Shown here piece by piece: positions 4,974 to 64,000 of a stretch of DNA of 64,000 nt (within the stretch, counting starts at the first letter, position 1; the number at the start of each line of letters is the position of its first letter). Under the pieces are notes generated by a model, which ran no database searches, was not told the DNA's origin, and saw only the letters and a program-made list of their open reading frames with translations. The position numbers and the translations under genes were made by a program. The DNA lies in assembly GCA_964386355.1 (NCBI GenBank), contig CAYLQQ010000006.1, positions 2,088 through 66,087 of the forward strand, written 5' to 3'. Source of the stretch: an uncultured Pseudomonadales bacterium. GTDB lineage: Bacteria > Patescibacteriota > Microgenomatia > UBA1400 > UBA1449.

Positions 4974-5468
4974 TTAATTAGTAGATGTATACAAACTCAC
5001 TTTTTCAATAGCTTCACAAATTAAATGTAAACGTTTTTTGGCTTCATTCAGATTTATTGTTTGATCACTTTCGACAAAATAGTGAAAAATCTGATTACGG
5101 CTTTGTTTCCACCCCTCCCAGAGAGCTTCGGCAATTTCGGGAGTGTATATCCGTACTATATCATCATATAACCGTTCAAATCCGTCTGGGTGCTGATTTG
5201 CAAGTTCGGGATTTAAGGCTTTACCAACTCTAAAACGATTACCCAAATACCTATCTTTTGTAATCAATCCCTGTTTGAAGAAAAGATCTTTAAGAAAACC
5301 TTCATAAGCTTTGGCTGCCGGCATAACCACAAATGAGTAGTCATAAAAGGTTGTTTGGATAAAACTAGGATCCTCCAGAAAATAAAAACTTTGAGAAAGA
5401 AGCTCTTTTTGGATAAAGGGTAGATTACGAAACCATACCTGGTCATGTAAGTGTGTCAGTGAAATCAT
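4974..5468 (-). CDS. Hypothetical protein
   Basis: 164 aa, soluble, with no motif I can assign. Good coding-like composition. An antisense shadow ORF at 5264..5446 is ignored. Confidence 0.4.
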   Translation of the reverse strand: MISLTHLHDQVWFRNLPFIQKELLSQSFYFLEDPSFIQTTFYDYSFVVMPAAKAYEGFLKDLFFKQGLITKDRYLGNRFRVGKALNPELANQHPDGFERLYDDIVRIYTPEIAEALWEGWKQSRNQIFHYFVESDQTINLNEAKKRLHLICEAIEKVSLYTSTN

Positions 5469-36995: not shown

Positions 36996-38447
36996 ATGTA
37001 TTACTTACTAATGAAGCCCTCTTACATCCTTCCCCTTATCTACATCTTTCTGTTTACTATCCTGGCACTAGCTAGTCTTGAAGCCTTTCCCATTTTTGCG
37101 GATGAGGCTATATATCTGTTTTGGGTTCAAAAGATCTTGGGAGGTATTGCTCATCCCTTTATATCACTCTACGATGGTAAACCACCTCTATTTATCTGGC
37201 TTTCAGCCTTAGGTTCAATGGACGGATCATCTCTCTTGTTATCCGGAAGGACTATATCTGTAATGGCATATGGAGCCACACTTACTCTACTATTTTTCAG
37301 TATAAAAAAACAGAGTTTAACATGGGCATGGATTGCCCTACTTCTTACCTCACTATCACCCTTTGTCTTTTTCCATTCCCGTCTGGCGATCATGGATTCA
37401 TTACTGACTATGTTTTTAACGGCAGCAATTCTGACCTGGACTTTTAGCACTCACCGCTTTCGGGGTCTTTTGACGGGAATTTTTCTGGGACTGGCTTTTT
37501 GGACCAAAACTCCTACTCTGTTTCTGATCCCTTTTCCTATCCTTTCTGTCTTACTGTTTGAAAGAAATAAAACAAATTTCAAACAAGCCCTCATTGCTTT
37601 TGGAGTGTCTTTAGCTGCAATATTGAGCCTACGAATATCAGTCTGGTTCCCCTTTTTATTTAATCGCGCTGGTGACTTTACTTACCCGATATCAGCCATT
37701 CTCTCTGGCCAATTGAAACATATACCAACAAATTTTTATGAGCTGCTCTATTGGCTCTCAGCCTACCGTCTTTGGCCTGTAATTTTAATTAGTTTACTAT
37801 CTCTAGGTTTGGCGCTTAAAGAAAAAAATAAACTGGTACTCAACTTGGTTTTGGCTTGTATCTGTTTTAGTGTCCCGTTTGTACTCCTAGGCAAAGTTCT
37901 CTCTCCACGTTACTATCTATTGCTGGGTATCCTCCTGCCCGTGATTGCAGGCTTCAGCCTGTCAAAACTAAACAAGCGCCTGAGCATGACAGCTTCTGTG
38001 CTACTTGCCAGCCTGTATATTCCGTTTATTTTTACCTTGCTTGCTACACCACTCTCAGTCAATTTGCCTGCAGTCGATAAAGACCAGTACCTGCAAAACT
38101 GGGCTAGCGGTATTGGTATTCGAGAAGCTTCAGAATTTTTCATTGATGAGGCTAAAAATGGTAGCGTTCAGATACTTTCAGAAGGTTACTTTGGAACACT
38201 TCCAGATGGTCTATTTGTAGAGATAGGAGATAAAATAAAAGACCTGCCTTTGCAGATTGATGGTGTGGGCGAGAATGGCTCCCCAAATTATTACCGTAAA
38301 CTAACTGAAAATACAGCCGATAGTATTTTCTACATCGGCAATCATGATAGAATAAACCAAGCTACTTTAGATGAGTTAGAACTGATCCTATCTTATTCAA
38401 AAGTTGATGGAGGACCCGCTTTAGAAGTGTATAAAGTAAAAAGGTAA
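36996..38447 (+). CDS. GT-C glycosyltransferase, family 39/83-like (ArnT/PMT-type)
   Basis: 483 aa. First-loop acidic motif FADEAIYLFW. About 11 TM helices followed by a C-terminal soluble domain. Confidence 0.6.
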   Translation: MYYLLMKPSYILPLIYIFLFTILALASLEAFPIFADEAIYLFWVQKILGGIAHPFISLYDGKPPLFIWLSALGSMDGSSLLLSGRTISVMAYGATLTLLFFSIKKQSLTWAWIALLLTSLSPFVFFHSRLAIMDSLLTMFLTAAILTWTFSTHRFRGLLTGIFLGLAFWTKTPTLFLIPFPILSVLLFERNKTNFKQALIAFGVSLAAILSLRISVWFPFLFNRAGDFTYPISAILSGQLKHIPTNFYELLYWLSAYRLWPVILISLLSLGLALKEKNKLVLNLVLACICFSVPFVLLGKVLSPRYYLLLGILLPVIAGFSLSKLNKRLSMTASVLLASLYIPFIFTLLATPLSVNLPAVDKDQYLQNWASGIGIREASEFFIDEAKNGSVQILSEGYFGTLPDGLFVEIGDKIKDLPLQIDGVGENGSPNYYRKLTENTADSIFYIGNHDRINQATLDELELILSYSKVDGGPALEVYKVKR

Positions 38448-44788: not shown

Positions 44789-47700
44789 ATGCATCAATTA
44801 TTTTCAAACCGCCTGTTTTTTTCTTTCAGTTTTTTAACAATCTTTGGCCTCACTAACTTTTTACCAAATTTCAAACTCCCTTTTTTCCATACCTCTCCCT
44901 CGCCTACACCTGCTCCGCATGCAACAGAAATGCCACAAACCGATGGAGATGTACTGGGAAATTACCGCTACAAGCCCAGCATTCACATCAGTGGAGGCAA
45001 GGATAGCTATAGTACGGGTGGACTTATAGCACTTTCTTCAAAAGAAGAACCGTCAGTTGAGATTAGTGCATACAATACTTCGGGCGAGGTCCAAATTGAT
45101 GTCTGGGAAGCAGATGAGCAGGCTGTGTTAGAGTACCTGACCCATGACAAAGATGGGAAACAAACCAAACGGATTGAGTCTGTTGACAGATTCAAGTTTA
45201 TCGGTACCAGCAAAGCAGATATTAATGGCAGCTACGGAAGAGAATCAAAAGCCTTGCTCCCTCTTGCTGAAACAGGAATCTATTTTTTAAAGATCAGTAA
45301 AGGAGATATTGCAGAACAAGCGTTTATCATTAGGTCATCTTTTGGAGCGGTAGTAAAGGAAGGTGACGATGAACTCATCTTTTGGTCACAGGATTTTGAT
45401 ACCAAACGAAGTCTACAGTCAGGAACGGTCACTACGTTTAACTTGCTCGATAACGCAGTTGAAGTCACAAGTGCAGGGATTGACGGACAAGGTGTTGCCA
45501 AACTGCCTGTGTCAGAAAACAATGATATTGCTCTGGTAAAAAATGACGGTAAACTGGCAGTGGTCCCCTTAAACCTTCGGTACCTTAACTACGGCTATTC
45601 GTATAAAGAATTTCAGCGCAAAGAAAGGCAAAATAAGTTCTTTACCTTTACAGATAGACCGCTGTACAGACCTGGAGATACGATCTATTTTAAATCAGTT
45701 GTCAGAGATGACGATGATGCAAGATATACCCTACCAGCAGGAAATGTCACTGTTGGTTTATACTCAGGTTGGTCAGAAGAAGATAAAATCAGTGAAAAAA
45801 CACTCACATTTGATGAGTTTGGTACAGTTTCAGGTGATTTTAAATTGCCTGAAACTGCAAAAACCGGAGACTACCATGTTAAAATCAACCTTACAGAACG
45901 AATCTACTCAAATTCCTATTTTCAGGTCGAACATTTCCGTAAACCTGAATATTCTATTGATGTAAACATACCTAAAACCACATACATTTCAAAGGATGAA
46001 ATGGTATTTACCATATCTGGTTCATACTTTTCCGGTCAACCTCTTGCTAATCAAGCTGTAAAATACCGGGTCTTTAGCGGAGATTACTACCAGTATGAGT
46101 ATTATGATGAAACTGACGCATATTTTCTTAATGAGGATTATCGGTACGGAAACTGGTGGGGTAATAGCTCAGAGCAATCTTCGATGACGGTCACTCTCAA
46201 TCATCTGGGCAAAGCTGATGTCACCTTAAAACTGGATAATAATTCAAACAGAAACCGAGTGTATTCAATCGAAGCAGAGTTTGATAACGGCTCAGGCAAT
46301 CCAAGCTTTGTACGGAAAAATATGCTTGTGTACGCTGGTGAGTATGACCTGTACCGCAAAGACTACCATTCATATTATGGTTCGCTTTCACAACCACTTG
46401 ATCTTCCGCTTCGATTAGTTAGCCACGTAAACCAGCCAGTTAGTAATATTGATCTACATACAAACATTGAGGTTACAAATTGGGTAGAAGAACGTGTCCC
46501 GGAGGAAAAATACCCAAGGTATAGGAAGGTGGTTGAAACTGTACCAAGTATATCTTCAAAAACTGATAATCAAGGGTATGCTACCTTCAGTTTCCAACCT
46601 ACCAAGACGGGCTCATACACATTTCATGTAATAGGTACCGACAAACGGGGCAATACAATCTCAAAAGATTTTTATGCCTATGTAACCGATAAAAATTACC
46701 CGTACTTTAGCTCTGAACAAGATACAGGTTTGAGCTTACAGCTAGATAAAAAGGAGTATAACCCAACTGATACAGCTACACTCTCAATTTTTTCAAACAT
46801 ACCCAACCGCGATATCTTTTTGACATTTGAACGAAATCGAGTAAATAGGTACCAGGTATTATCATTGGAGGGTACCAATGGCTCAGTAGAAGTCCCTCTT
46901 TTTGATACTGACATGCCTAATATTTACCCGACTTTGACAAGTTTTTCCGATGACAATATTGATAGGGTTTCAGAAAATTTGAAGGTTTCAACTGTTTCTA
47001 AACAGCTTCAGGTACGTATCCAAACAGATAAACCCAGTTATGGTCCTGGTGAAGTTGTAACTGCCCGGCTCGAGACTAGTGATATGGCTGGAAATCCCCA
47101 ATCAGCTGATGTAGCCTTGTGGGCAGTTGATAAGGCGTTATTTGAATTGGTAAGTGAAAATCCTAAAAAAATCAGTGAAACATTCTGGAGTGAGCGCTAT
47201 GCAAATACCTCAACTGCCCACTCCCTTGAGGGCATTACAGCTAATGTGGCTGAAATGGGGGGTTGTTTTACTGCTGGCACACAAATTTTATTAGCCAACG
47301 GGACCTCTTCTCCTATTGAATCGATCAAACCGGGAGATGTAATTAAAACAAGAAAAAGCGAAACCAACAGTGCGCTTGTCAAAGCAAAAGTTAGTTCTGT
47401 TCATATTGCTACTGTTTCAGGGATATTGAAAATAAACAATAACCTGGAAGTTACACCTGAACACATTGTCTGGCTCAATGGCCGCTGGCAGGAAATTGGT
47501 AATGCTCAGATTGGTGATCTACTCTTTGACAGGCAGGGTAAAAAAGTACAGATAGCATCAATCGAATGGTTGTCCGGAAAACGAACCGTATATAACCTTG
47601 AAATTGAAAATAGGCATACGTATTTTGCAAACTCGGTTTGGGTGCATAACCAGAAAGGCGGAGGTGGAAGGACAGTTTTTAAAGATACTGCATACTGGAA

Positions 47701-49969
47701 CCCTTCTGTAAGAACTGATACTTCAGGCCGTGCCGTACTTCGTTTCAAGCTGCCGGATAACCTGACTACGTGGGTATTATCTGCAGTTGGAGATACACAA
47801 GCAACTACTGTCGGACAAACACGAAATGAAATTGTAGTTTCCAAAGATGTCATTGTTCGCCCATTCTTACCAAATATCATTCGTGAACAAGATGATCTGG
47901 CAATTCTAACCCTGGTTCAAAACTTTACTGATCAGGATCATAGTTTTGATATCAATTTATCTTTTGACTCAGGTGATGTTAGAGATGCGACAAAATCAGC
48001 AGTTTTTATCAAATCAAAAGAGTCTGTTGAGGTTACATGGCAGGTAAAGGCAACTAAAGTTAATCCTGATTCTAAACTCCGTTTTTCTGCTATTGCTACC
48101 GATAACTCTAAACTGCAGGATGTGATCACTCAACAGATACCTGTCCACGCATATGGGTATTTAGAAACCCGGGGTGAAACAGGTTATGGCGATGCGTCAT
48201 TTAAACCAGTACTCGCAAAAGACAGCAGCCCAGAGAAATCCTCCGTTACCCTATCACTCTCTCCTTCACTAGTCGGAATGTTGCCTACAGCAATGCAGTA
48301 CTTAGTTGATTACCCGTACGGCTGCGTAGAGCAAACCACGAGCCGTCTCATGCCTGTGTTGCAAGCTAAACAAAACCCTGAACTCTTTGCGGATGTAATC
48401 AAAGACAAAAATCTTGATGAAATGGTTAACAAAGGATTGGATCGTCTGAGAACTCTGCAGTACTTTGATGGTGGTTGGAACTGGTGGTCATATGGTGAAT
48501 CAAATCCCTTTATCACTGCATATGTTGTTGAAAACCTAGTTCTTGCTAAAGACTTGGGGTTTTCAGTGGACAGTGAAATGCTCCAATTGGCTGAAAGCTT
48601 CTTATCCCGGATTGATAAACAAATTACAGCAGAAGATATGATTCCCAAAAAATATGGCCTTGCCCTGCTTAAATCTGAAACGTATAAAACGTCAAGAAGT
48701 CCTGTCATTGAAAACAGTCCAGATCTTACCGCTCTGGCAGTTATGACAAATTACCTCAATGGAGTGACAGATCCCTCAGAAAACGGTTTGCAAAAACTTA
48801 TTGCAATGGGAAAGGCACAAGGAGATGGTTTGTACTGGGAAGCTGGCAAGAAAGATCGCTTTGCATCCAAAGATGCCTCAACAGCTCTGGCTTTACGGGC
48901 AATTCTTTTGGCGGGCACGGATGCTGATAGGGAAATAGCAGTCAAAGCTGCACGGTACTTAACCAAGCAACACCGTAGTCACTACTGGTCAAACACCTAC
49001 AGCACAGTGCAGGTTATACGCGCAATTACTGCCCTTGCCAATACTGATAACGAAGCTAATCCAAACTATACGTATTCGGTAACCCTGGATAACAAGATTG
49101 TTAAACAAGGAACAATAAATTCTATTAACCAAAAACCAGTTCAGATTCAAGTTCCCATAGCCAACCTAAAACCCAATGGTTCAGTATTGAGCATTTCTAA
49201 GCAAGGTGAAGGTCAAATATACTCCACATTAGTCACAAAGGAATTTCATACTGATAGAACTGCAAAAGCAATAGATCACGGCATGACCATAACCAGAGAG
49301 TATGTAAATGAAAAAGGAGAGGAATATAGTCTTGGTCTTGGTGATACTGCAATTGTAAAACTGACAATAGGCGGACTCGGGGCTGGCGATTACTATGGCG
49401 TGATCGCTGATGAACTACCCGCAGGACTGATCCCTGTTGTTGAAACTCTAAAAAATGAACAGTACAGAGATACTGGAAGCAGTTCTTATGATTATTATGC
49501 AGGCAGTAAAGAGTATACACAAAATGGTGTAATAATTTCTCTCTACCAGATATTACCAGGAACAAGAACATACGAATACAAAGCAAGGGTCGTTTCTCAT
49601 GGATCGTTTATTGTTCCTCCTGCCACAACGTCTCTCATGTACACACCTGAAATATATGGACAATCAGATGCTTACACGTTAACCATAGACAAAGAATCAA
49701 AAATTATTCCAGGTAAAAAGATCCAGAAAATCATTAAGGATAAAAGCAATTTACGACTAGATGAAAAAGCTAAACTCAAGCTGGGGATAATTTTACTAGT
49801 TGCTGTAATACTGATAATAAGCTTGCTTTTGCTACGTCCGGCTATTAGAAATACGTTTTTATATAAACAGCTTACACAAAAGCTACGTATTCTACGCAGA
49901 AAACAGAATCCAGAAACTATACATTTAGAAGATGATATACAGCAAAATCCGCCCCCTCAGCAACAGTAA
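44789..49969 (+). CDS. Alpha-2-macroglobulin-family surface protein (1726 aa) with embedded Hint domain
   Basis: N-terminal signal/anchor MHQLFSNRLFFSFSFLTIFGL. Long beta-rich region of macroglobulin-like repeats. Thioester motif YPYGCVEQTTSRLMP, with CVEQ at ~48323..48334. Alpha-helical TED-like region (LQYFDGGWNWWSYGESNPFITAYVV). C-terminal TM helix LGIILLVAVILIISLLLL. Residues ~826-954 form an intein-type Hint domain, listed separately. Confidence 0.82.
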   Translation: MHQLFSNRLFFSFSFLTIFGLTNFLPNFKLPFFHTSPSPTPAPHATEMPQTDGDVLGNYRYKPSIHISGGKDSYSTGGLIALSSKEEPSVEISAYNTSGEVQIDVWEADEQAVLEYLTHDKDGKQTKRIESVDRFKFIGTSKADINGSYGRESKALLPLAETGIYFLKISKGDIAEQAFIIRSSFGAVVKEGDDELIFWSQDFDTKRSLQSGTVTTFNLLDNAVEVTSAGIDGQGVAKLPVSENNDIALVKNDGKLAVVPLNLRYLNYGYSYKEFQRKERQNKFFTFTDRPLYRPGDTIYFKSVVRDDDDARYTLPAGNVTVGLYSGWSEEDKISEKTLTFDEFGTVSGDFKLPETAKTGDYHVKINLTERIYSNSYFQVEHFRKPEYSIDVNIPKTTYISKDEMVFTISGSYFSGQPLANQAVKYRVFSGDYYQYEYYDETDAYFLNEDYRYGNWWGNSSEQSSMTVTLNHLGKADVTLKLDNNSNRNRVYSIEAEFDNGSGNPSFVRKNMLVYAGEYDLYRKDYHSYYGSLSQPLDLPLRLVSHVNQPVSNIDLHTNIEVTNWVEERVPEEKYPRYRKVVETVPSISSKTDNQGYATFSFQPTKTGSYTFHVIGTDKRGNTISKDFYAYVTDKNYPYFSSEQDTGLSLQLDKKEYNPTDTATLSIFSNIPNRDIFLTFERNRVNRYQVLSLEGTNGSVEVPLFDTDMPNIYPTLTSFSDDNIDRVSENLKVSTVSKQLQVRIQTDKPSYGPGEVVTARLETSDMAGNPQSADVALWAVDKALFELVSENPKKISETFWSERYANTSTAHSLEGITANVAEMGGCFTAGTQILLANGTSSPIESIKPGDVIKTRKSETNSALVKAKVSSVHIATVSGILKINNNLEVTPEHIVWLNGRWQEIGNAQIGDLLFDRQGKKVQIASIEWLSGKRTVYNLEIENRHTYFANSVWVHNQKGGGGRTVFKDTAYWNPSVRTDTSGRAVLRFKLPDNLTTWVLSAVGDTQATTVGQTRNEIVVSKDVIVRPFLPNIIREQDDLAILTLVQNFTDQDHSFDINLSFDSGDVRDATKSAVFIKSKESVEVTWQVKATKVNPDSKLRFSAIATDNSKLQDVITQQIPVHAYGYLETRGETGYGDASFKPVLAKDSSPEKSSVTLSLSPSLVGMLPTAMQYLVDYPYGCVEQTTSRLMPVLQAKQNPELFADVIKDKNLDEMVNKGLDRLRTLQYFDGGWNWWSYGESNPFITAYVVENLVLAKDLGFSVDSEMLQLAESFLSRIDKQITAEDMIPKKYGLALLKSETYKTSRSPVIENSPDLTALAVMTNYLNGVTDPSENGLQKLIAMGKAQGDGLYWEAGKKDRFASKDASTALALRAILLAGTDADREIAVKAARYLTKQHRSHYWSNTYSTVQVIRAITALANTDNEANPNYTYSVTLDNKIVKQGTINSINQKPVQIQVPIANLKPNGSVLSISKQGEGQIYSTLVTKEFHTDRTAKAIDHGMTITREYVNEKGEEYSLGLGDTAIVKLTIGGLGAGDYYGVIADELPAGLIPVVETLKNEQYRDTGSSSYDYYAGSKEYTQNGVIISLYQILPGTRTYEYKARVVSHGSFIVPPATTSLMYTPEIYGQSDAYTLTIDKESKIIPGKKIQKIIKDKSNLRLDEKAKLKLGIILLVAVILIISLLLLRPAIRNTFLYKQLTQKLRILRRKQNPETIHLEDDIQQNPPPQQQ
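47264..47650 (+). other. Intein-like Hint / bacterial intein-like (BIL, A-type) domain inserted in the A2M protein
   Basis: 129 aa. Block A CFTAGTQILLANGTSSPIESIKPGDVIKT begins with Cys and is closely similar to canonical intein N-termini. Block B LEVTPEHIVWL (T..H). Block F/G VYNLEIENRHTYFANSVWVHN ends in His-Asn. There is no endonuclease domain. The +1 residue is Gln, not Cys/Ser/Thr. Flanks are Gly-rich (EMGG | ... | QKGGGG). Confidence 0.75.
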
Positions 49970-54968: not shown

Positions 54969-55898
54969 GTGACCAAAGGATTAATCACTATGAACAAAGG
55001 AATACAACTTGCCATGCTGACTGCAGTTATTTCTGGATTTTCAATTTTTATCAATAAATTCGCTGTTGATTCTATTAAGCCGGCCTTAACGTTTACAGCC
55101 AGTAAAAACGTAATGGTTGCGGTCGCTATCATATCCCTATTATTTCTGACAAGAAAGTGGAAAAAGGTTCTAAGCCTCAAAAAGGATGAGCAAACCAAGC
55201 TTGGACTGATTGCTCTTATCGGCGGTTCCCTGCCATTTTACTTATTTTTTACAGGTCTATCTCAAATCCCAGCTATTAACGCAGCTATTATCCAAAAAAC
55301 GCTGGTTCTGTGGGTAGCCCTGCTCGCAATACCTTTTTTAAAAGAAAAAATTACCAAAATCCAAATTCTGGCTGTTGCCATTCTCTTTGGATCAAACATT
55401 ATGGTTGGTGGTTTTAAAGGTTTCTCATATTCAACTGGAGAACTAATGGTATTGGGAGCAACTATTTTGTGGGCAATCGAAAATGTGATTGCAAAAAAAG
55501 TTTTATCTACAGTCGATCCGGATATTGTCACCGCTGCCCGTATGGGTATGGGAAGTATAATTCTATTTACAGCATCTATGATTATAAACCCGAATACTAT
55601 TTCTAGTCTTATAAGCCTGTCTTCAATACAATGGATGTGGCTATGGGTCACCGCTATTGCTCTGTTTGCCTATGTATCGGTTTGGTATCGCGCACTCAAA
55701 CACGCACCAGCAATTACTGTCACTGCCGTACTTGTCGCATCAACTCTTGTAACAAATATTCTCACAGCTACATTTATTACCCATACATGGAAAGAAGATT
55801 TTACAAAACAGGGGTTTTTGATGCTACTAGGAATTGCTTTACTGGTATGGCAAGCAAGACAATCTCAGGATAATATCAAGACAATTACGCAATCGTAA
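54969..55898 (+). CDS. EamA/DMT-superfamily transporter
   Basis: 309 aa with 10 predicted TM helices in two 5-TM repeats. The start may be the second Met at ~54990 (MNKGIQLAMLTAVISGF). Confidence 0.65.
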   Translation: MTKGLITMNKGIQLAMLTAVISGFSIFINKFAVDSIKPALTFTASKNVMVAVAIISLLFLTRKWKKVLSLKKDEQTKLGLIALIGGSLPFYLFFTGLSQIPAINAAIIQKTLVLWVALLAIPFLKEKITKIQILAVAILFGSNIMVGGFKGFSYSTGELMVLGATILWAIENVIAKKVLSTVDPDIVTAARMGMGSIILFTASMIINPNTISSLISLSSIQWMWLWVTAIALFAYVSVWYRALKHAPAITVTAVLVASTLVTNILTATFITHTWKEDFTKQGFLMLLGIALLVWQARQSQDNIKTITQS

Positions 55899-56715
55899 TC
55901 GAATTCAGAAGATCATTCGTCCAGTATACAAGATTTTGCTTTTCTTCTTTGGTCAGTTTTTTTGCTATCCAACCCCAATGAAGTGCCACCTCATCGTTAT
56001 TAGCTATTTCACCTATTACATCAGGATAGTATGCAAACTCTTTGGTAACATCATGCAATACATACATATCTTTTTTACGCCCAATCTCAACAGTCTCAAC
56101 TTTTATAAGTTGATAGTTGTTCAGTATTGAACTGGTACTTAATTCTTTTTGAATTTTTTGTCTATTTATTTGAGGATTGGTTAGTACTTTACCCCACCGT
56201 ATCATGCAGTTATTTATGGATTCCAGATTAAAGGGCACAGAACCGCTAGCCTTACCAACCCCTATATGTAATATGTTAAATAGATGTATGGGTATAAATT
56301 TTTGTGGTTTTTTATCTATAATTTCTTGGATAAGGAATTCCGGTACACCCTGTTTTATTAAGTGTTTCAGCAAAATATTATAATGTTCTGATTCAATATG
56401 CTTCAATATGTCATTACCTAGCCAGTAAGCTTCAACCACCTCATATGAAAAGGGATCTTTGCCAGTAATTTCTGCAATTGTTTGTAAGTACGGATTTAGA
56501 ACAATAAATTGCTTTAACTCCTCCTGAACACTGGTACATTTACCCCCTTGAATACATCGCACAAGTTTTGCGGGCGCGCTCTCTTGACCGCAATAACCCA
56601 GCATATTGGGTTGTAGGGCAAAATGGGAGCAGAGTTGCAGAGCTTTAATATTCATACTACATGCTACTATATCAGTATGCCTAAAAAAATCTATATCTTC
56701 GGTAATCCTGACCAC
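55885..56715 (-). CDS. Hypothetical protein
   Basis: 276 aa, soluble, several Cys near the N-terminus (CSMNIKALQLCSHF...CGQES...CIQGGKC). Unassigned. Confidence 0.4.
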   Translation of the reverse strand: MVRITEDIDFFRHTDIVACSMNIKALQLCSHFALQPNMLGYCGQESAPAKLVRCIQGGKCTSVQEELKQFIVLNPYLQTIAEITGKDPFSYEVVEAYWLGNDILKHIESEHYNILLKHLIKQGVPEFLIQEIIDKKPQKFIPIHLFNILHIGVGKASGSVPFNLESINNCMIRWGKVLTNPQINRQKIQKELSTSSILNNYQLIKVETVEIGRKKDMYVLHDVTKEFAYYPDVIGEIANNDEVALHWGWIAKKLTKEEKQNLVYWTNDLLNSITIA

Positions 56716-57072
56716 ATCCCTGACGCACTACCTTACGAATTTGTCCATGAAATTCAAAACTCGCTGCCGAATCTTGTAATCGTATATGTCAAACCCAATG
56801 AAGACCTGCCGTTTGACAACCATGAACATGCCGTACTGATTGATACAGTAGTTGGAATTACAGATATTACTATAATTACTGATGAAAATATTGATAAGAT
56901 TCAACTTCCGCCCCGTTATTCAGCTCATGATTTTGATTTAGGTTTCCAACTTAAGTATTTAAAAAAATTAGGAAAAATTGATTCATTCTTAATTATTGGT
57001 ATACCCATGGGTTTAGATAAATCCCCAGTAGCTGTTAATAGAATTATAAGTCTTATAATTAAGGCTAGTTAA
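56677..57072 (+). CDS. Hydrogenase maturation protease-like protein (HybD/HycI family, divergent)
   Basis: The likely start is the ATG at 56677 (MPKKIYIFGNPDHIPDALPYEFVHEI); the track begins at 56623. The pattern IxxGN...D.......L, a later Asp, and a His (SAHDFDLG) parallel the HybD metal-binding residues. The canonical GDDGxG is absent. It lies next to the hydrogenase genes. Confidence 0.45.
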   Translation: MPKKIYIFGNPDHIPDALPYEFVHEIQNSLPNLVIVYVKPNEDLPFDNHEHAVLIDTVVGITDITIITDENIDKIQLPPRYSAHDFDLGFQLKYLKKLGKIDSFLIIGIPMGLDKSPVAVNRIISLIIKAS

Positions 57073-57081
57073 ATAAGAAGT

Positions 57082-60000
57082 TTATCTCTTCCTCTTCCCT
57101 AAGACAGCCATAGCTCCAATAGCTGCTATGGCTAGGAGAATACCAATCAGCTGGACATAGACTGGTACAAAACCAGACTTTGGAAGCTCAGGTGCTTTAG
57201 GAACGGTTGGACTGCAGCTGCAGTCATTCTCTTTAGGACACTCTACGTTCACACATTTACTCTCACCTTCTACACTACGGCACACAAGAGGACTTTGACA
57301 CTGCGCATTGACTGAGCAGCTGTGATAACAACTGTAGGGAGGTGTAGCTTGAGGAACAGGACTGGGGTTGGGGGTTGGCGTGGGTGTGATAGTTGGAGTT
57401 TGCACTGGAGCGTTTGATACTACACACGATACTCCTTGTCTGTAATAACCCTGAGTACAGATATACGTACACCTTACATCACCCGTACAGGCATCTGCAA
57501 GCCTCACAGCAGTATTAGCAGTAAGACCAGCCAAATAGTTGGAACAGGGTTGAGAATGAGCTGGAACAGAACCTATACAGGTGTAGGACTGGGACGGAAG
57601 TTGACAACTACCACTAATGAGCTGATAACCAGAATTACAGGTATATTCACATTTTCTGTTTGCAGTACAAGCTGGGACAAGAGTTTTGGGTAAATTAGCA
57701 GTAAGGCCCTGTGAGTCGCCTGAGCACAGTTGGGCATAGGTTGGGGTTTGACCAGTACAGGTAAAGTCTATGCCTCCGCTACTGGGAATACAGGTCCCAC
57801 TGCTGCAGCTGGTACCAGTAGCGCAGGGTGCCTGGTTTACCCAACGGTTACTAGTACATAATTGGGGAATACCAGTTGTACTGCACCGCATTGATCCGTT
57901 ACTTGGACAGTAGTTTTCAATTGTCATACAAATACCATTGCCTGTGCACTCCTCACCCTGGGAACAGGCTACAGCTGATTCCCAGGCTGTTCCTTGAGTG
58001 TTACATACTTGATAGCTGGATTGGGAAGCACAGCGTTTCTGCTGAGGGGTACAAACAGAACCTGAGACAGGAACACAGGCACCATTCTCACACACCTGTG
58101 ATGAAGTACAGGAATTCTGGTTTGTCCACTGATTGTTAGTACAAGTTTGAGGAGTATTGCCTGTACAGCGGGGAGCACTACCACTGGCACAGTAGTTGGG
58201 AATAGCTTGGCAGGTAAATGTAGTAGTAGAACAGACACTTCCTGATGTACAAGTACTAGACACTACCCATCCCTTACGATCACTACTACAAGTTTCAATA
58301 TTCCCGTTACTACATCGTTTGGCTCCACTACTGCATGCATAAGAGTGGCAACTCCCAGATAAGCAGTACGTATCAGACTGGGTACAGTCTGTTCTTGTCA
58401 CCCACTGATTGTTAGTACAAGTTTGAACTATGCTACCCTGACAACGGGTAGCGTTTGTAGTACAAACGAAAGGAGTTGGATTAGATGTGGGAGTTAGAGT
58501 GGGGGTAGGATATGGAGTATTACCCGAATAAATCGGAACATTTGTCAACATTGCTTTATTTAAAAAACCTGGACAAAACCCAACTCCATATTGTGCCACA
58601 TTAATCTCTGATGATGAGCAGTTCGGATCCTGATCAGTAGGGTTAAAGTAATACTGATTACTAGACAAACCATTACCTACAGATACAGGAGGATCAGTAA
58701 AGAAACTACTTTGAAGACATAGGTAACTACTCTTATCTGAAACAATCCCACCTTTTATGGCGTTAATTATTGCTTGTTTTCCATCTTCCTCTTTTCCTTT
58801 CCAGTAAATTAATTTTGAAAAATTATTGGGATGATCTGGCTCATATCCATGAGCTCCTACGTTTTGATACCTACTGAAATTACCATTTTGCATCTTAGAG
58901 TCCCGCGGTCCCCAGCCATTAAACTTTAACCAAATGTTTGATTGATATGTTGAATCCATCCAAATTTCAAGTATTTTCCCAACCCTGCCAGTTGCAGACA
59001 ACCCATTGCCTCTTTGCCATACCACAGGAGTTGGCGCGAAGATTTCTACGTAGCTAGTTATGATCTGCTTCATTGCCTGAATAAAGTAATCATCAAACAC
59101 AAAGCATTCTGAATTATTCACTGAATCCAAAGGACATTTGAGCTGGTCAGATTCTGTACATACCTCAACTTTATTTCCAGGTACTAAATTACTAGGATTA
59201 CACGTGCTTCTCTTAGCAACAATATCGCTGGCTACTTGTTGGACTGAAAGAGTGGGATAATGTTGTTTTTGTACATATTTTGCCAGCGACAAAACTGCCG
59301 GACAATCTGGATTAAGTACGTCAGGCAAGCAGCTGCAACTTGGATTTTTGCGAGAGGGGTCGCAGTAGGCTGGACATTTTGAGCTTAAAACACATTCGCC
59401 TGACTCACCACCCGACATCATTTGAATAGCTTCAACTACCCCATCATCAATATCCTGTTGAAACTCCTGTTTCATAGCCCGTAAGGCATTAGCATAGTAG
59501 TCTTGAAATAAGGGATCCCATACGGCAGCAATTTTTGTCGGGAACTGAATATGGGTAGTGCCTTCTGGTGGAGTTGTACTGCCTGAAGCTGGTAGAGTCA
59601 ACTCAGTAAAGCTATTACTTCCTGGTGATGTCTCTTTTAAATACTTAGCTTCGCTAACATCAACAAACTGAGAGTTTGGCCATACAGGTTTAACGCTATT
59701 TTTAAGGTTATTAGGGTCATACCATACGTAACGTGACTTGTTGCGGTAGACGTTTAGATCTCCGCACCCGGCAGATATATACGTTTCTATTCCTTTATTT
59801 ATTGCCCACTTAGGGACATTATGTTCTTTATTTGACTTATCCCCTACTTGAATTTGAAGCATTACTTTCTTACCTAAAGACCTCGCCTTATCTACCTCAC
59901 TTCGTTTCTGGCTAAAATTATATGTCCCCTCTTGTGGTTCGATAGCTGCCCAGCTATCACCAGCACCATTACTAAAATCAAAGTACGTGGAGGATGAATA

Positions 60001-60213
60001 ACCCCATCGTATACCACTATTTGTATTAAATGATCCATATGTACCGTGACATTGACCTAAGCCTAAGCCTTGATTAGCTTGATAAAAGATTTCTGCTTGT
60101 TTGCTTCTAAATTGCGAAATACCTATCGATATACCAAGTATAATCACACTTGCTATGAAAATATATATAGAAATCAGCTGCTTAATTGGTGATAACGGAG
60201 ATATTTTCTTCAT
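57082..60213 (-). CDS. Large surface protein: N-terminal anchor, GH-clan-A-like glycosidase domain, tandem Cys-rich repeats, Pro/Thr linker, LPKSG sorting signal
   Basis: 1043 aa. N-terminal TM IYIFIASVIILGISIGI. WAAIEPQEGTYNF matches the WxxxEPxEGxYxF pattern of GH42/GH35-type TIM-barrel glycosidases. There are about five ~45-aa repeats of CxxxxxRCxxxxxQxCTNNQWxxxxxCxxxxxCxxGxC plus two longer Cys repeats containing GLTAN. Linker PVQTPTITPTPTPNPSPVPQATPP. C-terminal LPKSG, then a hydrophobic helix and KRKR tail. Confidence 0.7.
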   Translation of the reverse strand: MKKISPLSPIKQLISIYIFIASVIILGISIGISQFRSKQAEIFYQANQGLGLGQCHGTYGSFNTNSGIRWGYSSSTYFDFSNGAGDSWAAIEPQEGTYNFSQKRSEVDKARSLGKKVMLQIQVGDKSNKEHNVPKWAINKGIETYISAGCGDLNVYRNKSRYVWYDPNNLKNSVKPVWPNSQFVDVSEAKYLKETSPGSNSFTELTLPASGSTTPPEGTTHIQFPTKIAAVWDPLFQDYYANALRAMKQEFQQDIDDGVVEAIQMMSGGESGECVLSSKCPAYCDPSRKNPSCSCLPDVLNPDCPAVLSLAKYVQKQHYPTLSVQQVASDIVAKRSTCNPSNLVPGNKVEVCTESDQLKCPLDSVNNSECFVFDDYFIQAMKQIITSYVEIFAPTPVVWQRGNGLSATGRVGKILEIWMDSTYQSNIWLKFNGWGPRDSKMQNGNFSRYQNVGAHGYEPDHPNNFSKLIYWKGKEEDGKQAIINAIKGGIVSDKSSYLCLQSSFFTDPPVSVGNGLSSNQYYFNPTDQDPNCSSSEINVAQYGVGFCPGFLNKAMLTNVPIYSGNTPYPTPTLTPTSNPTPFVCTTNATRCQGSIVQTCTNNQWVTRTDCTQSDTYCLSGSCHSYACSSGAKRCSNGNIETCSSDRKGWVVSSTCTSGSVCSTTTFTCQAIPNYCASGSAPRCTGNTPQTCTNNQWTNQNSCTSSQVCENGACVPVSGSVCTPQQKRCASQSSYQVCNTQGTAWESAVACSQGEECTGNGICMTIENYCPSNGSMRCSTTGIPQLCTSNRWVNQAPCATGTSCSSGTCIPSSGGIDFTCTGQTPTYAQLCSGDSQGLTANLPKTLVPACTANRKCEYTCNSGYQLISGSCQLPSQSYTCIGSVPAHSQPCSNYLAGLTANTAVRLADACTGDVRCTYICTQGYYRQGVSCVVSNAPVQTPTITPTPTPNPSPVPQATPPYSCYHSCSVNAQCQSPLVCRSVEGESKCVNVECPKENDCSCSPTVPKAPELPKSGFVPVYVQLIGILLAIAAIGAMAVLGKRKR
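57085..57186 (-). other. Cell-wall sorting signal (LPKSG + hydrophobic segment + KRKR)
   Basis: C-terminal ELPKSGFVPVYVQLIGILLAIAAIGAMAVLGKRKR has the tripartite architecture of sortase substrates, with a variant pentapeptide LPKSG. Confidence 0.5.
57300..58480 (-). repeat. Tandem coding repeats (Cys-rich CTNNQW-type modules) within the surface protein gene
   Basis: Repeated protein modules (CTNNQWVTRTDC..., CTNNQWTNQNSC..., CTSNRWVNQAPC...) are visible in the translation. The nucleotide level shows corresponding diverged repeats (e.g. repeated cccactgattgttagtacaagtttg at ~58120 and ~58400 on the plus strand). Confidence 0.5.
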
Positions 60214-60258: not shown

Positions 60259-61560
60259 TTACTTTCTGTCCCACTCGATTTTTAGAAAGTTTGTAGCGCA
60301 GGACATGCAGGGATCATAGGCGCGGACAATCTGCTCTGCTTCCAGTTTTAAAATTGCCTCCTCTTTATGAAGATTCTCATTAAAATATTTTTTTAGGTCA
60401 TTTTCGATATTAATCTGATTTTGGGAAGTAGGTACAATCACATCATAATCTACAAGAATACCATTATCATCAGTCTTAGCCATATGGTATAAAATCCCCC
60501 TAGGTGCTTCAACCACTCCCACTCCAATACCAGCTTTATGAGTAGGTTGGGCTGGCTTTTCATCAGTAATACTGATATCTTTAAGAATATCAATAGCACT
60601 ATCAACACTATTTAAAATTTCTATTGCCTGAGCTAGATTGTTGTCATAAATATTGTCTGAGGGGAAAAATCCCAGATACTGACTAGCATCACGCCTAGTG
60701 CGCTCGTGCAGTTGATCCCGGTTAAGGTTTAGCCTGGCAAGAGAGCCTACTAAATAATCATCATGTTTGCTTGCCAATTTGTAACCTTCAGCATGTGAAT
60801 AGGGAATTACAACTTTTTCCAGCATTTCATAAAAATTCTGTTCGGGAACACAGAGCCCGTCGGTAGTTGTAATATCCCCGTTAATATAATCCCATCCCTG
60901 CCTACCTCGTAAACACATGTAGTCACTATTTCGTTTAAACTCAGCTTTCCAGTCATAAAAGACTCCAATACCCCTAATCACCTGAGGCCGCACCGCTTCC
61001 AATCTGTCGATAAGTGCCGGAAACTGACTACTATCTGGCTGCTTTAGAAAACCTCCTACTGTCGGTAGAGGGGCATGTATAGCAGCTCCGATAATGGCAT
61101 TGGCTATATCACTCCCCAAGCGCTTAATATCAAATGAGTCGTGCAAAAGCTGGTGACCCTTGTCATCAGAACTATCAGGAATATCCAAAATTGAATCAAT
61201 TCCCAGTACATCCGGTAAAACAAAAAAGTATAGATGTAGGGCATGATCGCGGATCATGAGAGCATCATAGGCCAGATGGCGTAGTAATTTCGTCTGCTCT
61301 GAAATTTCTATGCCCATGGCTTTTTCTATTGCTTCCAAAGAGGCAAACAGGTGGGAAACCGAGCATGTCCCGCATATGCGGGATAAAAATTGTGGAGCAG
61401 CCACTGCGGGCTTTTTTTGGACAGCTTTTGTGTAAAAGCGCCTGTAATCCTGGATAAAAAATTTTAGGTCCGTTACTGCACCATCTCTCACAGTAACTTT
61501 CATTCCTGCAGAGCCTTCAATTTTTGTAATCTGGTCAATCGTAATATCGCCTGAATGCAT
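60259..61560 (-). CDS. [NiFe]-hydrogenase large subunit
   Basis: 433 aa. N-terminal L1 motif RICGTCSVSH (RxCGxCxxxH). C-terminal L2 motif DPCMSCATNF (DPCxxC), followed by a short tail LKIEWDRK. The canonical His/Arg after the second Cys pair is Asn here. Confidence 0.82.
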   Translation of the reverse strand: MHSGDITIDQITKIEGSAGMKVTVRDGAVTDLKFFIQDYRRFYTKAVQKKPAVAAPQFLSRICGTCSVSHLFASLEAIEKAMGIEISEQTKLLRHLAYDALMIRDHALHLYFFVLPDVLGIDSILDIPDSSDDKGHQLLHDSFDIKRLGSDIANAIIGAAIHAPLPTVGGFLKQPDSSQFPALIDRLEAVRPQVIRGIGVFYDWKAEFKRNSDYMCLRGRQGWDYINGDITTTDGLCVPEQNFYEMLEKVVIPYSHAEGYKLASKHDDYLVGSLARLNLNRDQLHERTRRDASQYLGFFPSDNIYDNNLAQAIEILNSVDSAIDILKDISITDEKPAQPTHKAGIGVGVVEAPRGILYHMAKTDDNGILVDYDVIVPTSQNQINIENDLKKYFNENLHKEEAILKLEAEQIVRAYDPCMSCATNFLKIEWDRK

Positions 61561-61646: not shown

Positions 61647-62150
61647 TTACTCAATTACTCCACAAATTTTCAAATACTTATTTACACCTGCTAAAAACAT
61701 GTCCTTATTCATTGGACAGCCCGGTACCTTATCATCTACCGTAATCACTTCGTCCAGCTTTTTTACTTTTGAAGCATAATCAAATCTGGCAAAATAATCT
61801 CGTATTTTGTCATCTATTTTCCCTTCAGCTTCAAATGAGTTACGTGATGCGCTGGGCATACCGGACACGGCACAGGAACCAATCGCCAGTACGTATTTGC
61901 TATTTGCTCGTATTTCTTTAAGCTCTTCTTCTTTTGATAGTGATGAAATTGCTCCTTCGACAATAGCCAGATCCAAGCCTTCAAGCCGATTATTGGTCCT
62001 CAATGCTTTAATATGCCGAAATTCTACCAAAGGTAACCATTGCAGCAAATAGTCATTGAGAATTTCAGTTAACAGTATTGAGCAGCCTTCGCAGCAGGTA
62101 AACGAGAAGAGACCAACCACTAATTTCTTTTTTGGGACAACTTCAGACAT
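61647..62150 (-). CDS. [NiFe]-hydrogenase small subunit (minimal, proximal-cluster only; NuoB-like)
   Basis: 167 aa. Four Cys in spacing typical of the proximal [4Fe-4S] cluster (FTCCEGC ... GSCA ... GCP). No Tat signal and no medial/distal cluster domain. Confidence 0.72.
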   Translation of the reverse strand: MSEVVPKKKLVVGLFSFTCCEGCSILLTEILNDYLLQWLPLVEFRHIKALRTNNRLEGLDLAIVEGAISSLSKEEELKEIRANSKYVLAIGSCAVSGMPSASRNSFEAEGKIDDKIRDYFARFDYASKVKKLDEVITVDDKVPGCPMNKDMFLAGVNKYLKICGVIE

Positions 62151-62255: not shown

Positions 62256-62474
62256 ATGTGCCTAGCCATTCCAGGCCAAATAATCAATATCGCCGGCCGA
62301 AAAGCAACCATTAAGTACCCAAATGTTATCAACTACGCTTTAATCTCTGATGAGAACGTGTCAGTAGGTGATTGGGTACTAGTGCAAATGGGAATTATTA
62401 TCCAGAAGTTGGATGCAAATGAAGCTGATAAACGTATAAGTAGTTGGCAATCTCAACCTACCACCAAGGATTAA
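62256..62474 (+). CDS. hypC: Hydrogenase maturation factor HypC/HybG
   Basis: The likely start is at 62256 (MCLAIPGQIINI; Met-Cys N-terminus is the HypC hallmark). The track ORF begins at 62193. Confidence 0.78.
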   Translation: MCLAIPGQIINIAGRKATIKYPNVINYALISDENVSVGDWVLVQMGIIIQKLDANEADKRISSWQSQPTTKD

Positions 62475-63516
62475 TCCAGCCGGTCCATAGGCGTATTACA
62501 AGAGCATCGTAGCGGTGAATGAAGGCTTTTCGCTCTTTTTTTAATGCTTCCTTTTGGGCATTCTCTAATTCTTTGCTTGTAGTAGCTCCCAATATTACGC
62601 CATCAGCAAACTCTAGGTACGATTCATTTTGTGATTGAGTTTGTAACGATACGCCAGAATGCTTTAAGTACATTTTTTCTTGTTCTTGAAGTTTTTCTTT
62701 TGGAATTGACTCATTAACAACATCAAATGTTATGGAGTAATTTTCTTGTAATAAGTTTGTCGCTTTACCATCATTTGCCAAAACTGCACTGGTCGGTAAA
62801 AAATATACTCCCAGTAAGCCTGATTGTTTTGTTTTCAGTAAAGCTGTAGCAAAAACACCTCGATCTCCCATAAATCCTGGATTTGGTAAACCACCACTTA
62901 TACGACCATACCCTTTGTCATTATCGATCTGTTTTTGAATAAAAATGTTCGCAAATGATCCGTCTAATGTAAAATCTAGAAGTTCAAATGATTTTGGATC
63001 AAAACCTATATCTGCTTGAACAGCGTTTACTGAGGTTTTCACTTGCTCTAGCTCAATAGGCATAGGAATAATTTCTCCTATGTAATAGTGTTTACTACCA
63101 GCTGATTCTATGAACGCAACTTCACCATTATTTGCTTCCTTGTCCTTATTAAGCGGATTAATTGCAACCAGACCAAGTGCAAGAAGTTCTATGTAAACAA
63201 ACATAAGTGAGGCTAACGAAACTACAATAATGAAACTAATATTTTTTATTGTGGATTTGACTTGAACAGGCCAATGGGGCAAATTGGGAACAACTCTTGC
63301 ATTACACCATACACAATAATCTTTGGTTTTGCTCATCATGGGATATATACACGGAACCATCTGATGTTTAAGTGACCATAAAATCCAATATAGGGGTGCC
63401 ACTAACAGACCAACAAGGGCAAAAATGTGAATCAGAAGCCAAAGTGCTACTAGTAATAGTACCCCTATAAAAAGTTTTCGATATGGTATATTTTTTAAAT
63501 TATCTGGTATTTTCAT
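62458..63516 (-). CDS. Hypothetical membrane protein with large extracytoplasmic domain
   Basis: 352 aa. Two N-terminal TM helices, a Cys-containing loop (CIYPMMSKTKDYCVWC), a third TM, then a ~230-aa soluble domain. No motif. Confidence 0.45.
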   Translation of the reverse strand: MKIPDNLKNIPYRKLFIGVLLLVALWLLIHIFALVGLLVAPLYWILWSLKHQMVPCIYPMMSKTKDYCVWCNARVVPNLPHWPVQVKSTIKNISFIIVVSLASLMFVYIELLALGLVAINPLNKDKEANNGEVAFIESAGSKHYYIGEIIPMPIELEQVKTSVNAVQADIGFDPKSFELLDFTLDGSFANIFIQKQIDNDKGYGRISGGLPNPGFMGDRGVFATALLKTKQSGLLGVYFLPTSAVLANDGKATNLLQENYSITFDVVNESIPKEKLQEQEKMYLKHSGVSLQTQSQNESYLEFADGVILGATTSKELENAQKEALKKERKAFIHRYDALVIRLWTGWINPWW

Positions 63517-64000
63517 CGATCAACATGATACATGAGTAATGAAAAGTCCTTTACAGTACACACTCCATCTTTATTAAGATCGCACGCTAAATCTGTATTG
63601 GGCTCAATAACTTGAGATAGACTGGGGTTTTGTTGCTTTTTCCATTCTGACACCCAATCCTTGACTGAAGTATATACTTCTTTTCGTTCAATCTTGCCGC
63701 TATTATCAACATCAAACAACTTAAACTCCAGCGGTAGCTGACTGATTTGACCAGTTTTTCCAGAATCTTGCTCGGGTTGGGTAATCTTGCTATACGGTGA
63801 TGGGGCAGCCACTGTCCGGGGTAAAGGAGAATTGTACGGGCGAGGAGAAGCAGAAACTGTTGCTGCTACGGGACTAGCTGTCACAATAGCAGTTGGAGTA
63901 GGTGTAATACCTGGTGTTGGACTGGGAGTTGAGGTTGGATTGAGTGTATTAGTTGGGCTAGAAGTCGGAGCTGGTGTAGGTGAGCGTGTTGGCTGAGTAG
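63513..64000 (-). CDS. Partial CDS (N-terminus beyond right edge): Pro/Thr-rich linker plus C-terminal dockerin-type module
   Basis: The track start at 63884 is a GTG, but the frame stays open to the window edge (upstream translation ...PTSSPTNTLNPTSTPSPTPGITPTPTAI-VTASP...). The C-terminus has two Ca-binding dockerin-like repeats, DVDNSGKIERKEV and DLNKDGVCTVKDFSLL. Confidence 0.55.
   Translation of the reverse strand, partial: TQPTRSPTPAPTSSPTNTLNPTSTPSPTPGITPTPTAIVTASPVAATVSASPRPYNSPLPRTVAAPSPYSKITQPEQDSGKTGQISQLPLEFKLFDVDNSGKIERKEVYTSVKDWVSEWKKQQNPSLSQVIEPNTDLACDLNKDGVCTVKDFSLLMYHVDR

Follow-up and report, generated by a model that had tools for sequence, protein, structure and literature searches.

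The DNA analysed here is a 64-kb stretch (64,000 nucleotides (nt), hereafter the window) of contig CAYLQQ010000006.1 from an uncultured bacterium of the Microgenomatia (Patescibacteriota). It carries a gene (57082..60213, minus strand) that we interpret, with moderate confidence, as encoding a secreted enzyme displayed on the cell surface, with a barrel head, a cysteine (Cys)-rich stalk, and a wall anchor. The open reading frame (ORF) begins with ATG, is uninterrupted up to a stop codon at 57082-57084, and encodes a protein of 1043 amino acids (aa) identical to P0001 in the NCBI/Logan collection, which lies on a 66.9-kb NCBI contig. Of the 65 Cys of the protein, the N-terminal domain has 15 and the C-terminal part has 50 (five modules of six, two modules of six, and a domain of eight). 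The original prediction, made from the sequence alone, described a giant sortase-type surface protein with a glycosidase-like domain, tandem Cys-rich modules, and a variant sorting motif. The ORF and every motif that it listed (WAAIEPQEGTYNF, CTNNQW, GLTAN, LPKSG, and KRKR) are present, but it missed a 10-Cys insertion (aa 274-370), a first Pro/Thr-rich linker (aa 563-582), and an 8-Cys domain (aa 960-1001). The word giant is too strong for 1043 aa; the window also encodes a 1726-aa alpha-2-macroglobulin.

The head is predicted to be a divergent (beta/alpha)8 glycoside hydrolase (GH)-like barrel (aa 48-562; 58528..60072; all features of this gene are on the minus strand), based on an AlphaFold (AF2) model, Foldseek comparisons, and a family profile. 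The model of the N-terminal domain, built from the family alignment, has eight barrel strands, with a predicted local distance difference test score (pLDDT) of 85.9 and a predicted template modelling score (pTM) of 0.85. All 37 significant Foldseek matches in the PDB (37/37, probability 0.98-1.0) were triosephosphate isomerase (TIM)-barrel glycosidases, ordered as GH14 beta-amylases (E value 2e-5), then GH42 (1kwg, 9e-5) and GH35. Two glutamates are placed to act as a candidate catalytic pair at the classic 4/7 positions, according to two family alignments and the model. E273 (codon 59395..59397) lies in a GGxxGE loop that follows beta4 (aa 260-264) and is the candidate general acid/base, and E458 (codon 58840..58842) belongs to a GYEP motif on beta7 (aa 455-459) and is the candidate nucleophile or base.

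Conservation within the family points to the same residues. Alignment A1 comprises 15 close members, and alignment A2 comprises 41 distant members with a mean column identity of 10%. The residues invariant in A1 include G51, G53, and Q54 (in GLGQCH), W88, E92, G269, G272, and E273 (in GGxxGE), W428, K430, and E458 (in GYEP). Both E273 and E458 are still invariant in A2, and so is W88. The GGxxGE pattern was found in 58 of the 65 retrieved family members. The WAAIEPQEGTYNF motif, which starts with W88 and includes E92 (aa 88-100; 59914..59952), is common to the N-terminal region of GH42 and GH35, and this WxxxEPxEGxYxF stretch is precisely the source of the hidden Markov model (HMM) matches. 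The Cys-rich insertion between beta4 and beta5 (aa 274-370; 59104..59394; 10 Cys), recognized from the sequence, the alignment, and the model, is kept in the close family and is missing in two distant members (P0014 and P0015).

A word-indexed homology search placed 16 proteins in the family. The barrel (aa ~45-560) is rare: a search of 1.84 billion proteins yielded 58 representatives (E<=1e-3), mostly from bacteria of the Candidate Phyla Radiation (CPR). One protein in the nearest cluster is labelled Candidatus Beckwithbacteria, and the species-representative genomes with relatives are labelled Gottesmanbacteria, 'Saccharibacteria', and Pseudomonadales, the last probably mis-binned. These labels make a Microgenomates-type CPR bacterium the most likely source of the window. 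Pfam GH42 was matched by 28 of the 41 distant relatives (best E value 9e-9), and when ten relatives were examined one by one, nine had GH42 matches, all above the gathering score. The C-terminal half of the barrel matched DUF4832 in P0052 (3.4e-6) and in P0048, and some distant relatives bear disaggregatase-related repeats and CBM96. When the family profile was compared with the PDB, GH42 beta-galactosidases came first (6y2k, 5e-8), followed by GH35 and GH10 (60 matches listed of 113 at E<=1). For the window protein itself, a sequence search of the PDB with the whole protein returned nothing meaningful, and its fibronectin matches were dismissed as noise (E>0.2). In Pfam at E<=1, the whole protein matched only an N-terminal GH42 fragment and the anchor, with no GH42 trimerisation or C-terminal domains and no DUF4832.

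The domain thus has the features of the clan GH-A-type 4/7 TIM-barrel glycosidases, that is, the barrel fold, remote homology to several families, and conserved carboxylates at beta4 and beta7. The clan GH-A glycosidase-like domain of the original prediction is borne out as a TIM barrel related to GH42, GH35, and GH10 by profile and to GH14, GH42, and GH35 by fold. Its assignment as a glycosidase is supported by fold and remote homology, but no threshold of a curated family was passed in Pfam or NCBIfam. From the profile comparisons and the model, we describe it as a predicted divergent 4/7-type glycosidase barrel of an orphan family, related to GH42 and DUF4832 by sequence and as GH14-like as it is GH42-like in shape.

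GH42 (PF02449; 6y2k, 1kwg) is also a (beta/alpha)8 barrel, resembles the window protein at the profile level in the W..EP..G.y.F motif and the beta1-beta4 region, has an acid/base Glu after beta4 and a nucleophile Glu on beta7 to which E273 and E458 may correspond, and is among the top fold matches. In contrast to GH42, the window protein stays below threshold, the likeness stops before the catalytic strands, GGxxGE stands in place of NE, the barrel contains large Cys-rich insertions and leads into Pro/Thr-rich linkers and Cys modules, and the C-terminal half of the barrel is DUF4832-like (in P0052 and P0048). On sequence grounds we do not consider the protein a GH42 member, because its match misses the threshold, GGxxGE takes the place of the NE motif, and Pfam returned no further domain, not even the accessory ones of GH42. 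The DUF4832 GH42-like proteins (PF16116) are similar in that distant family members (P0052, P0048) are GH42-like in the N-terminal half and DUF4832-like in the C-terminal half. They differ in that DUF4832 is not matched by the window protein, and DUF4832 has no assigned activity.

In shape, the best Foldseek matches were the GH14 beta-amylases (1bfn, 1veo; E value 2e-5, probability 1.0, template modelling (TM) score up to 0.43). The catalytic acid of GH14 belongs to a loop rich in Gly that follows beta4 (G-x-G-P-A-G-E), and the GGxxGE loop with the candidate acid/base may be similar to it. The likeness is at the fold level only, as the window protein had no GH14 match in Pfam at E<=1 and GH14 was not among the 60 PDB profile matches listed of 113, and the identity in the structural alignments is ~10%. 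The GH14 enzymes act on starch as soluble exo-hydrolases and have no comparable stalk or anchor.

Downstream of the barrel, a first Pro/Thr-rich linker (aa 563-582; 58468..58527; pLDDT <50 for aa 563-575) leads into a series of small Cys-rich modules. Five of these have six Cys each and fall into two alternating subtypes. Subtype A comprises R1 (aa 583-623; 58345..58467), R3 (aa 674-714; 58072..58194), and R5 (aa 768-809; 57787..57912), with the motif CTNNQW at aa 599 and 691 and CTSNRW at aa 786, and subtype B comprises R2 (aa 626-669; 58207..58338) and R4 (aa 720-763; 57925..58056). Two further 6-Cys modules, G1 (aa 817-871; 57601..57765) and G2 (aa 877-931; 57421..57585), have GLTAN at aa 836 and 896. 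They are followed by a second Pro/Thr-rich linker (aa 932-959; 57337..57420; pLDDT <50 throughout) and a membrane-proximal domain of ~42 aa with 8 Cys (aa 960-1001; 57211..57336) that is kept in the orthologues P0002-P0004. In the model of the C-terminal part, the modules form small all-beta hairpin units (pLDDT ~72-84) with disordered Pro/Thr-rich linkers between them.

The repeats were evaluated with local alignments against 300 composition-preserving shuffles per pair. The pairs among R1, R3, and R5 had z scores of 8.4-11.9, and R2 against R1, R3, R4, and R5 had z=4.9-7.3. R4 was the most divergent (z=2.4-4.9), and the R3/R4 pair alone was not significant. The original prediction of 'at least five' six-Cys repeats therefore holds with regard to their being real, but the number is exactly five. 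The GLTAN repeats, which it took for two different ones, are two copies of a single 55-aa module (z=18.3). At the DNA level, R1 and R3 have a common 51-nt stretch with 76% identity at a spacing of 276 nt (92 aa), and therefore the duplicated unit is the two-module A+B pair of 92 aa. In the orthologues, the place of the five CTNNQW units is taken by a long Pro/Thr-rich linker, so the CTNNQW block is a lineage-specific insertion that was expanded by duplication.

Each of the two module types also occurs in an unrelated protein. The homology search with the CTNNQW region returned a single protein (P0075), and that with the C-terminal region also returned a single protein (P0076); the C-terminal alignment (A4) was made from trimmed segments. 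Four CTNNQW-type units in P0075, a protein of a different organism, match the window modules Cys for Cys, with R3 in register. The P0075 modules are rich in Gly/Ala/Arg/Asp rather than Ser/Thr/Asn. On its 2-kb ENA contig, a single predicted protein joins the modules to the C-terminal domain of ribosomal protein L25/TL5, a fusion that probably reflects an error of gene calling. P0002-P0004 have two GLTAN units each, and P0076, an unrelated Patescibacteria protein, has three. A GLTAN unit scored 15.7 bits against Pfam Sushi over 20 residues (the C-x-Y-x-C-x-x-G-Y segment), not reaching the cutoff of 20.7. The original prediction could not name the repeat module, and this was confirmed by the lack of a Pfam family and of a PDB fold; CTNNQW and GLTAN are two disulfide-rich modules without a described family.

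Both ends of the protein have the features expected of an exported and anchored protein. The N-terminus (aa 1-40; 60094..60213) consists of a basic n-region and a 21-aa hydrophobic core, which may serve as an export signal or a membrane anchor, and aa 8-40 form a single helix in the AF2 model. A possible signal-peptidase site lies after aa 33, between Ser and Gln of the sequence G-I-S-Q. Homologues P0006-P0009 have short classical signal peptides that end just ahead of the conserved GLGQCH. The predicted C-terminal sorting signal (aa 1010-1043; 57085..57186) was assigned from TIGR01167, Gram_pos_anchor, and the orthologues. It consists of LPKSG at aa 1010 (57172-57186), 25 mostly hydrophobic residues, and a terminal KRKR, with the order and spacing of a sorting signal and with the hydrophobic segment and the basic tail at the extreme C-terminus.

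The pentapeptide recurs with changes at the same position. LPKSG is found in the window protein, P0003, and P0004, LPQAG in P0002 (L009), and PELPKAG with a transmembrane segment in P0076. Two cohesin-like proteins encoded next to relatives have LPDTG (in L003) and LPNAG (in L010), thus position 4 is T, A, or S in these lineages. The variant sorting signal of the original prediction is accordingly present with all three of its parts, and pentapeptides of this type recur in the relatives and neighbouring proteins (LPKSG, LPQAG, LPKAG, LPNAG, and LPDTG). LPKSG or LPQAG and the PxLP context are kept in orthologues of ~50-64% identity. Even the unrelated protein keeps the P-x-L-P context, and this speaks for a recognition site rather than a coincidental match. 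Compared with the LPXTG substrates of Gram-positive bacteria (TIGR01167/PF00746), the window protein has the same three-part signal in canonical order and spacing and a predicted N-terminal export signal, and it differs in having Ser (Ala in relatives) for Thr at position 4 and in scoring just below the cutoffs. Within the family, the LPx[S/A]G, transmembrane, and KRKR tail is restricted to the four closest members.

Surface display looks like a common theme of the barrel family. Dockerin-like calcium-binding repeats form the C-terminal end of approximately half of the 65 members retrieved (Pfam Dockerin_1 was reached by 9 of the 41 scanned), and a few members have plain transmembrane or type IV secretion system (T4SS)-pilin-like tails (e.g., P0052, P0060). 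The genes of the dockerin-tailed enzymes (such as P0010) in L003/L004 and L010 have directly upstream of them a gene for a secreted cohesin-like protein of ~220 aa, which in L003 (6798-7469) and L010 ends in LPDTG or LPNAG, a transmembrane segment, and a basic tail. The cohesin matches of these proteins are near-full-length. All cohesin matches, including that of a protein in the window, are sub-threshold (16.2 and 20.1 bits vs 24.1), and a PDB profile search for the cohesin identity of the small LPxTG proteins returned nothing. From their sequences, these sets look like a minimal cellulosome-style display, with an enzyme-dockerin on a wall-anchored cohesin. The window protein would reach the same end by direct fusion to an anchor, and this convergence is the best contextual support for surface display. 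The likeness to cellulosome-type display thus lies in the dockerin tails, the anchored cohesin-like neighbours in L003/L010, and a cohesin/dockerin-like pair in the window, whereas the window enzyme is fused straight to a wall anchor, so that a cohesin-dockerin bridge is unneeded, and the cohesin matches are sub-threshold.

Several observations were made on these loci. The sets in L003 (6179-9595) and L010 (127-4550) are operon-like, each with genes for a ~190-aa transmembrane protein, the ~220-aa cohesin-like protein, and the dockerin-tailed enzyme, and L010 additionally encodes a BNR/sialidase-like protein with a dockerin. In the window, a 352-aa membrane protein (62458..63516, minus strand) has a near-full-length, sub-threshold Cohesin match (E=7.6e-4, 20.1 bits vs 24.1). 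Its gene is preceded, with a 4-nt overlap, by that of a 123-aa EF-hand/dockerin-like protein (63513..63884, minus strand), and by sequence the two may be a small cohesin-dockerin pair.

Together, these features suggest how the protein might be made and used. The N-terminal signal would direct the protein to Sec export. Outside the cytoplasm, its 64 extracytoplasmic Cys would be joined in disulfides by MdbA/DsbA-like and VKOR machinery, which the literature suggests to be common in CPR bacteria (MdbA-like and VKOR disulfide machinery is described in CPR genomes; PMC6744442). The LPKSG, the hydrophobic stretch, and KRKR would retain the protein in the membrane, where a sortase would cut between Ser and Gly of LPKSG and link the protein to peptidoglycan. 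The ~450 residues of Pro/Thr-rich linkers and disulfide-rich beta-hairpin modules (five CTNNQW-type, two GLTAN-type, and one 8-Cys domain) would then serve as a stalk carrying the head past the wall, and, speculatively, the conserved Trp and Asn/Gln of the stalk modules may bind glycan too. The head, with its (beta/alpha)8 fold and the invariant E273 and E458 at the expected positions as a putative glycosidase catalytic pair, would act on some glycan, either environmental or from the envelope of a partner cell.

Sortase anchoring is the most likely reading of the C-terminus, and we hold it with somewhat more than moderate confidence, because a sortase family was published as near-ubiquitous in Microgenomates (PMC6744442) and a sortase gene is present in a complete Microgenomates genome (PMC7143001). 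A number of results weigh against this anchor and against a glycosidase head. For the anchor, the tail scored below the cutoffs of both curated LPXTG models, with 14.7 bits vs 15.9 for TIGR01167 (model positions 1-33 of 34) and, against a cutoff of 20 for Pfam Gram_pos_anchor (PF00746), 15.4 bits for the isolated tail and 11.4 bits for the whole protein. LPKSG is a position-4 variant of the canonical LPXTG, and Ser at that position is not a canonical sortase A substrate residue. Neither the 64-kb window (no TLxTC-type ORF, and no sortase among the 30 window proteins scanned with Pfam) nor any examined homologue contig yielded a sortase. The sub-threshold scores and this negative result would fit a C-terminus that is only a tail anchor, with the last helix keeping the protein in the membrane and LPKSG being a conserved linker instead of a sortase site, as would the tail of P0076 (LPKAG and a transmembrane segment without a basic end) and the plain C-terminal transmembrane or pilin-like anchors used by P0052 and P0060. 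We regard a mere tail anchor as the main rival, but as rather doubtful. The pentapeptide is in the canonical place, directly ahead of the hydrophobic stretch and KRKR, the HMM alignments start at the motif, and LPx[S/A/T]G is kept in the orthologues, the unrelated protein, and the cohesin-like proteins despite diverging flanks, in addition to the published near-ubiquity of the Microgenomates sortase.

For the head, the points against concern both the score and the active site. The GH42 match of the window protein missed the gathering threshold (14.4 bits, cutoff 21) and covers aa 87-138 alone, the NCBIfam GH35_fam model gave 12.9 bits vs a cutoff of 500 (E=0.03), and even the GH42 matches of the relatives examined one by one cover profile positions about 16-136 of 376 (beta1-beta4) and end before the catalytic strands. 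The large insertions in the barrel keep the Foldseek TM-scores low (0.25-0.43). The canonical NE acid/base motif of clan GH-A is replaced by GGxxGE, and DUF4832 is an uncharacterised domain. With regard to the stalk, the CTNNQW units have no family in Pfam (best DUF7107, E=0.011 over 18 residues), and a Foldseek search of the PDB with the C-terminal model gave nothing significant (best E=0.02, probability <=0.23), so that no relative among the known binding domains was detected for the modules. The failure to reach a curated GH threshold, the missing NE motif, and the adhesin-like architecture of a long Cys-rich stalk with an anchor would be compatible with a glycan-binding (lectin-like) or otherwise non-catalytic head on a protein that is chiefly an adhesin. 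This seems quite unlikely to us, as the two Glu at the 4/7 positions are invariant among sequences as distant as those of A2, G269/G272, W428, K430, and the GQCH on beta1 are invariant too (a pattern typical of a selected active site), and many relatives carry dockerins, like cellulosomal enzymes. If the head is an enzyme, it could also act on the polysaccharide of the cell's own envelope or matrix, for remodelling, release, or turnover, instead of on food or a host surface. In Gram-positive bacteria, DUF4832 genes are found with Pel exopolysaccharide loci (10.1101/768473), some distant relatives have the disaggregatase-related repeats and CBM96, and a PMT-family glycosyltransferase and an L,D-transpeptidase are encoded in the window. 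We consider such a role unlikely, since no polysaccharide-synthesis genes adjoin the gene in the window or on any homologue contig, the conserved neighbours in the nearest clade are hydrogenase genes, and dockerin/cohesin display classically serves the breakdown of external substrates.

The target gene is located 45 nt downstream of a NiFe-hydrogenase large-subunit gene (60259..61560), which is preceded by the small-subunit gene (61647..62150), all three on the minus strand and with no minus-strand terminator-like site between the hydrogenase genes and the target gene. The same hydrogenase order, with HypC upstream, is found at P0003 and P0004 (~50% identical orthologues; L001 8162-9971 and L002 6871-8680). 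Functional coupling to the NiFe hydrogenase as a general feature was rejected, since the order is not kept at P0008, P0010, and P0013. We read the adjacency as lineage synteny, possibly with co-transcription. On the other side of the target gene, a 149-aa ORF (56623..57072, plus strand) ends 10 nt from its stop codon. This ORF has no Pfam match, and it is divergently oriented with respect to the gene of a DUF6390 protein (55885..56715, minus strand), the longest ORFs of the two overlapping by 93 nt. Given the hydrogenase neighbours, it is a mere speculation that the 149-aa ORF might encode a maturation protease.

Other genes of the window were also noted. The PMT-family (dolichyl-phosphate-mannose-type) glycosyltransferase is encoded at 36996..38447 (plus strand), and another lies directly beside P0076 (L007 11204-12502); it is a speculation that such enzymes O-glycosylate the Pro/Thr-rich linkers of these surface proteins. 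The bacterial alpha-2-macroglobulin (44789..49969, plus strand) has MG2, bait region, A2M, TED, and bMG10 domains. Between its bait region and A2M, it has matches to PT-HINT (aa 862-954, E=1.6e-8) and Vint (aa 825-901, E=1.7e-7), and these Hint-like matches could represent an intein or a Hint insertion in the protease-trap protein. A 164-aa protein (4974..5468, minus strand) has sub-threshold RNase LS-like HEPN/RnlA-toxin matches (E=3.5e-6, 27.8 bits vs 29) and may be the toxin of a toxin-antitoxin pair.

The barrel family and the CTNNQW and GLTAN modules are unnamed at present, while the clan GH-A-type barrel, the sortase-type anchor, and the modular surface display are of known kinds. Taken all together, and as a tentative and improbable combination, the barrels could form a new GH family between GH42 and GH14, with the GGxxGE acid/base loop and GQCH on beta1. 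In this combination, CPR bacteria would display them on the surface via interchangeable anchors (a sortase tail, a dockerin on a wall-anchored cohesin, or pilin-like transmembrane tails), the enzymes would cut glycans of the partner-cell envelope or matrix, the CPR sortase would take LPx[S/A/T]G, and CTNNQW and GLTAN would be new glycan-binding modules.

The CPR/Patescibacteria are presumed to depend on other cells, living from them or on them, with surface proteins as the likely point of contact. A conserved, surface-displayed, and probably catalytic barrel outside the curated families is a candidate for a new CAZy family, and the two disulfide-rich modules are possible additions to domain libraries. 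The LPx[S/A]G tails lead to a testable prediction on the specificity of the CPR sortase. Current understanding is not overturned by these findings, which extend sortase anchoring, cellulosome-like display, and GH-A-type barrels into a poorly charted lineage.

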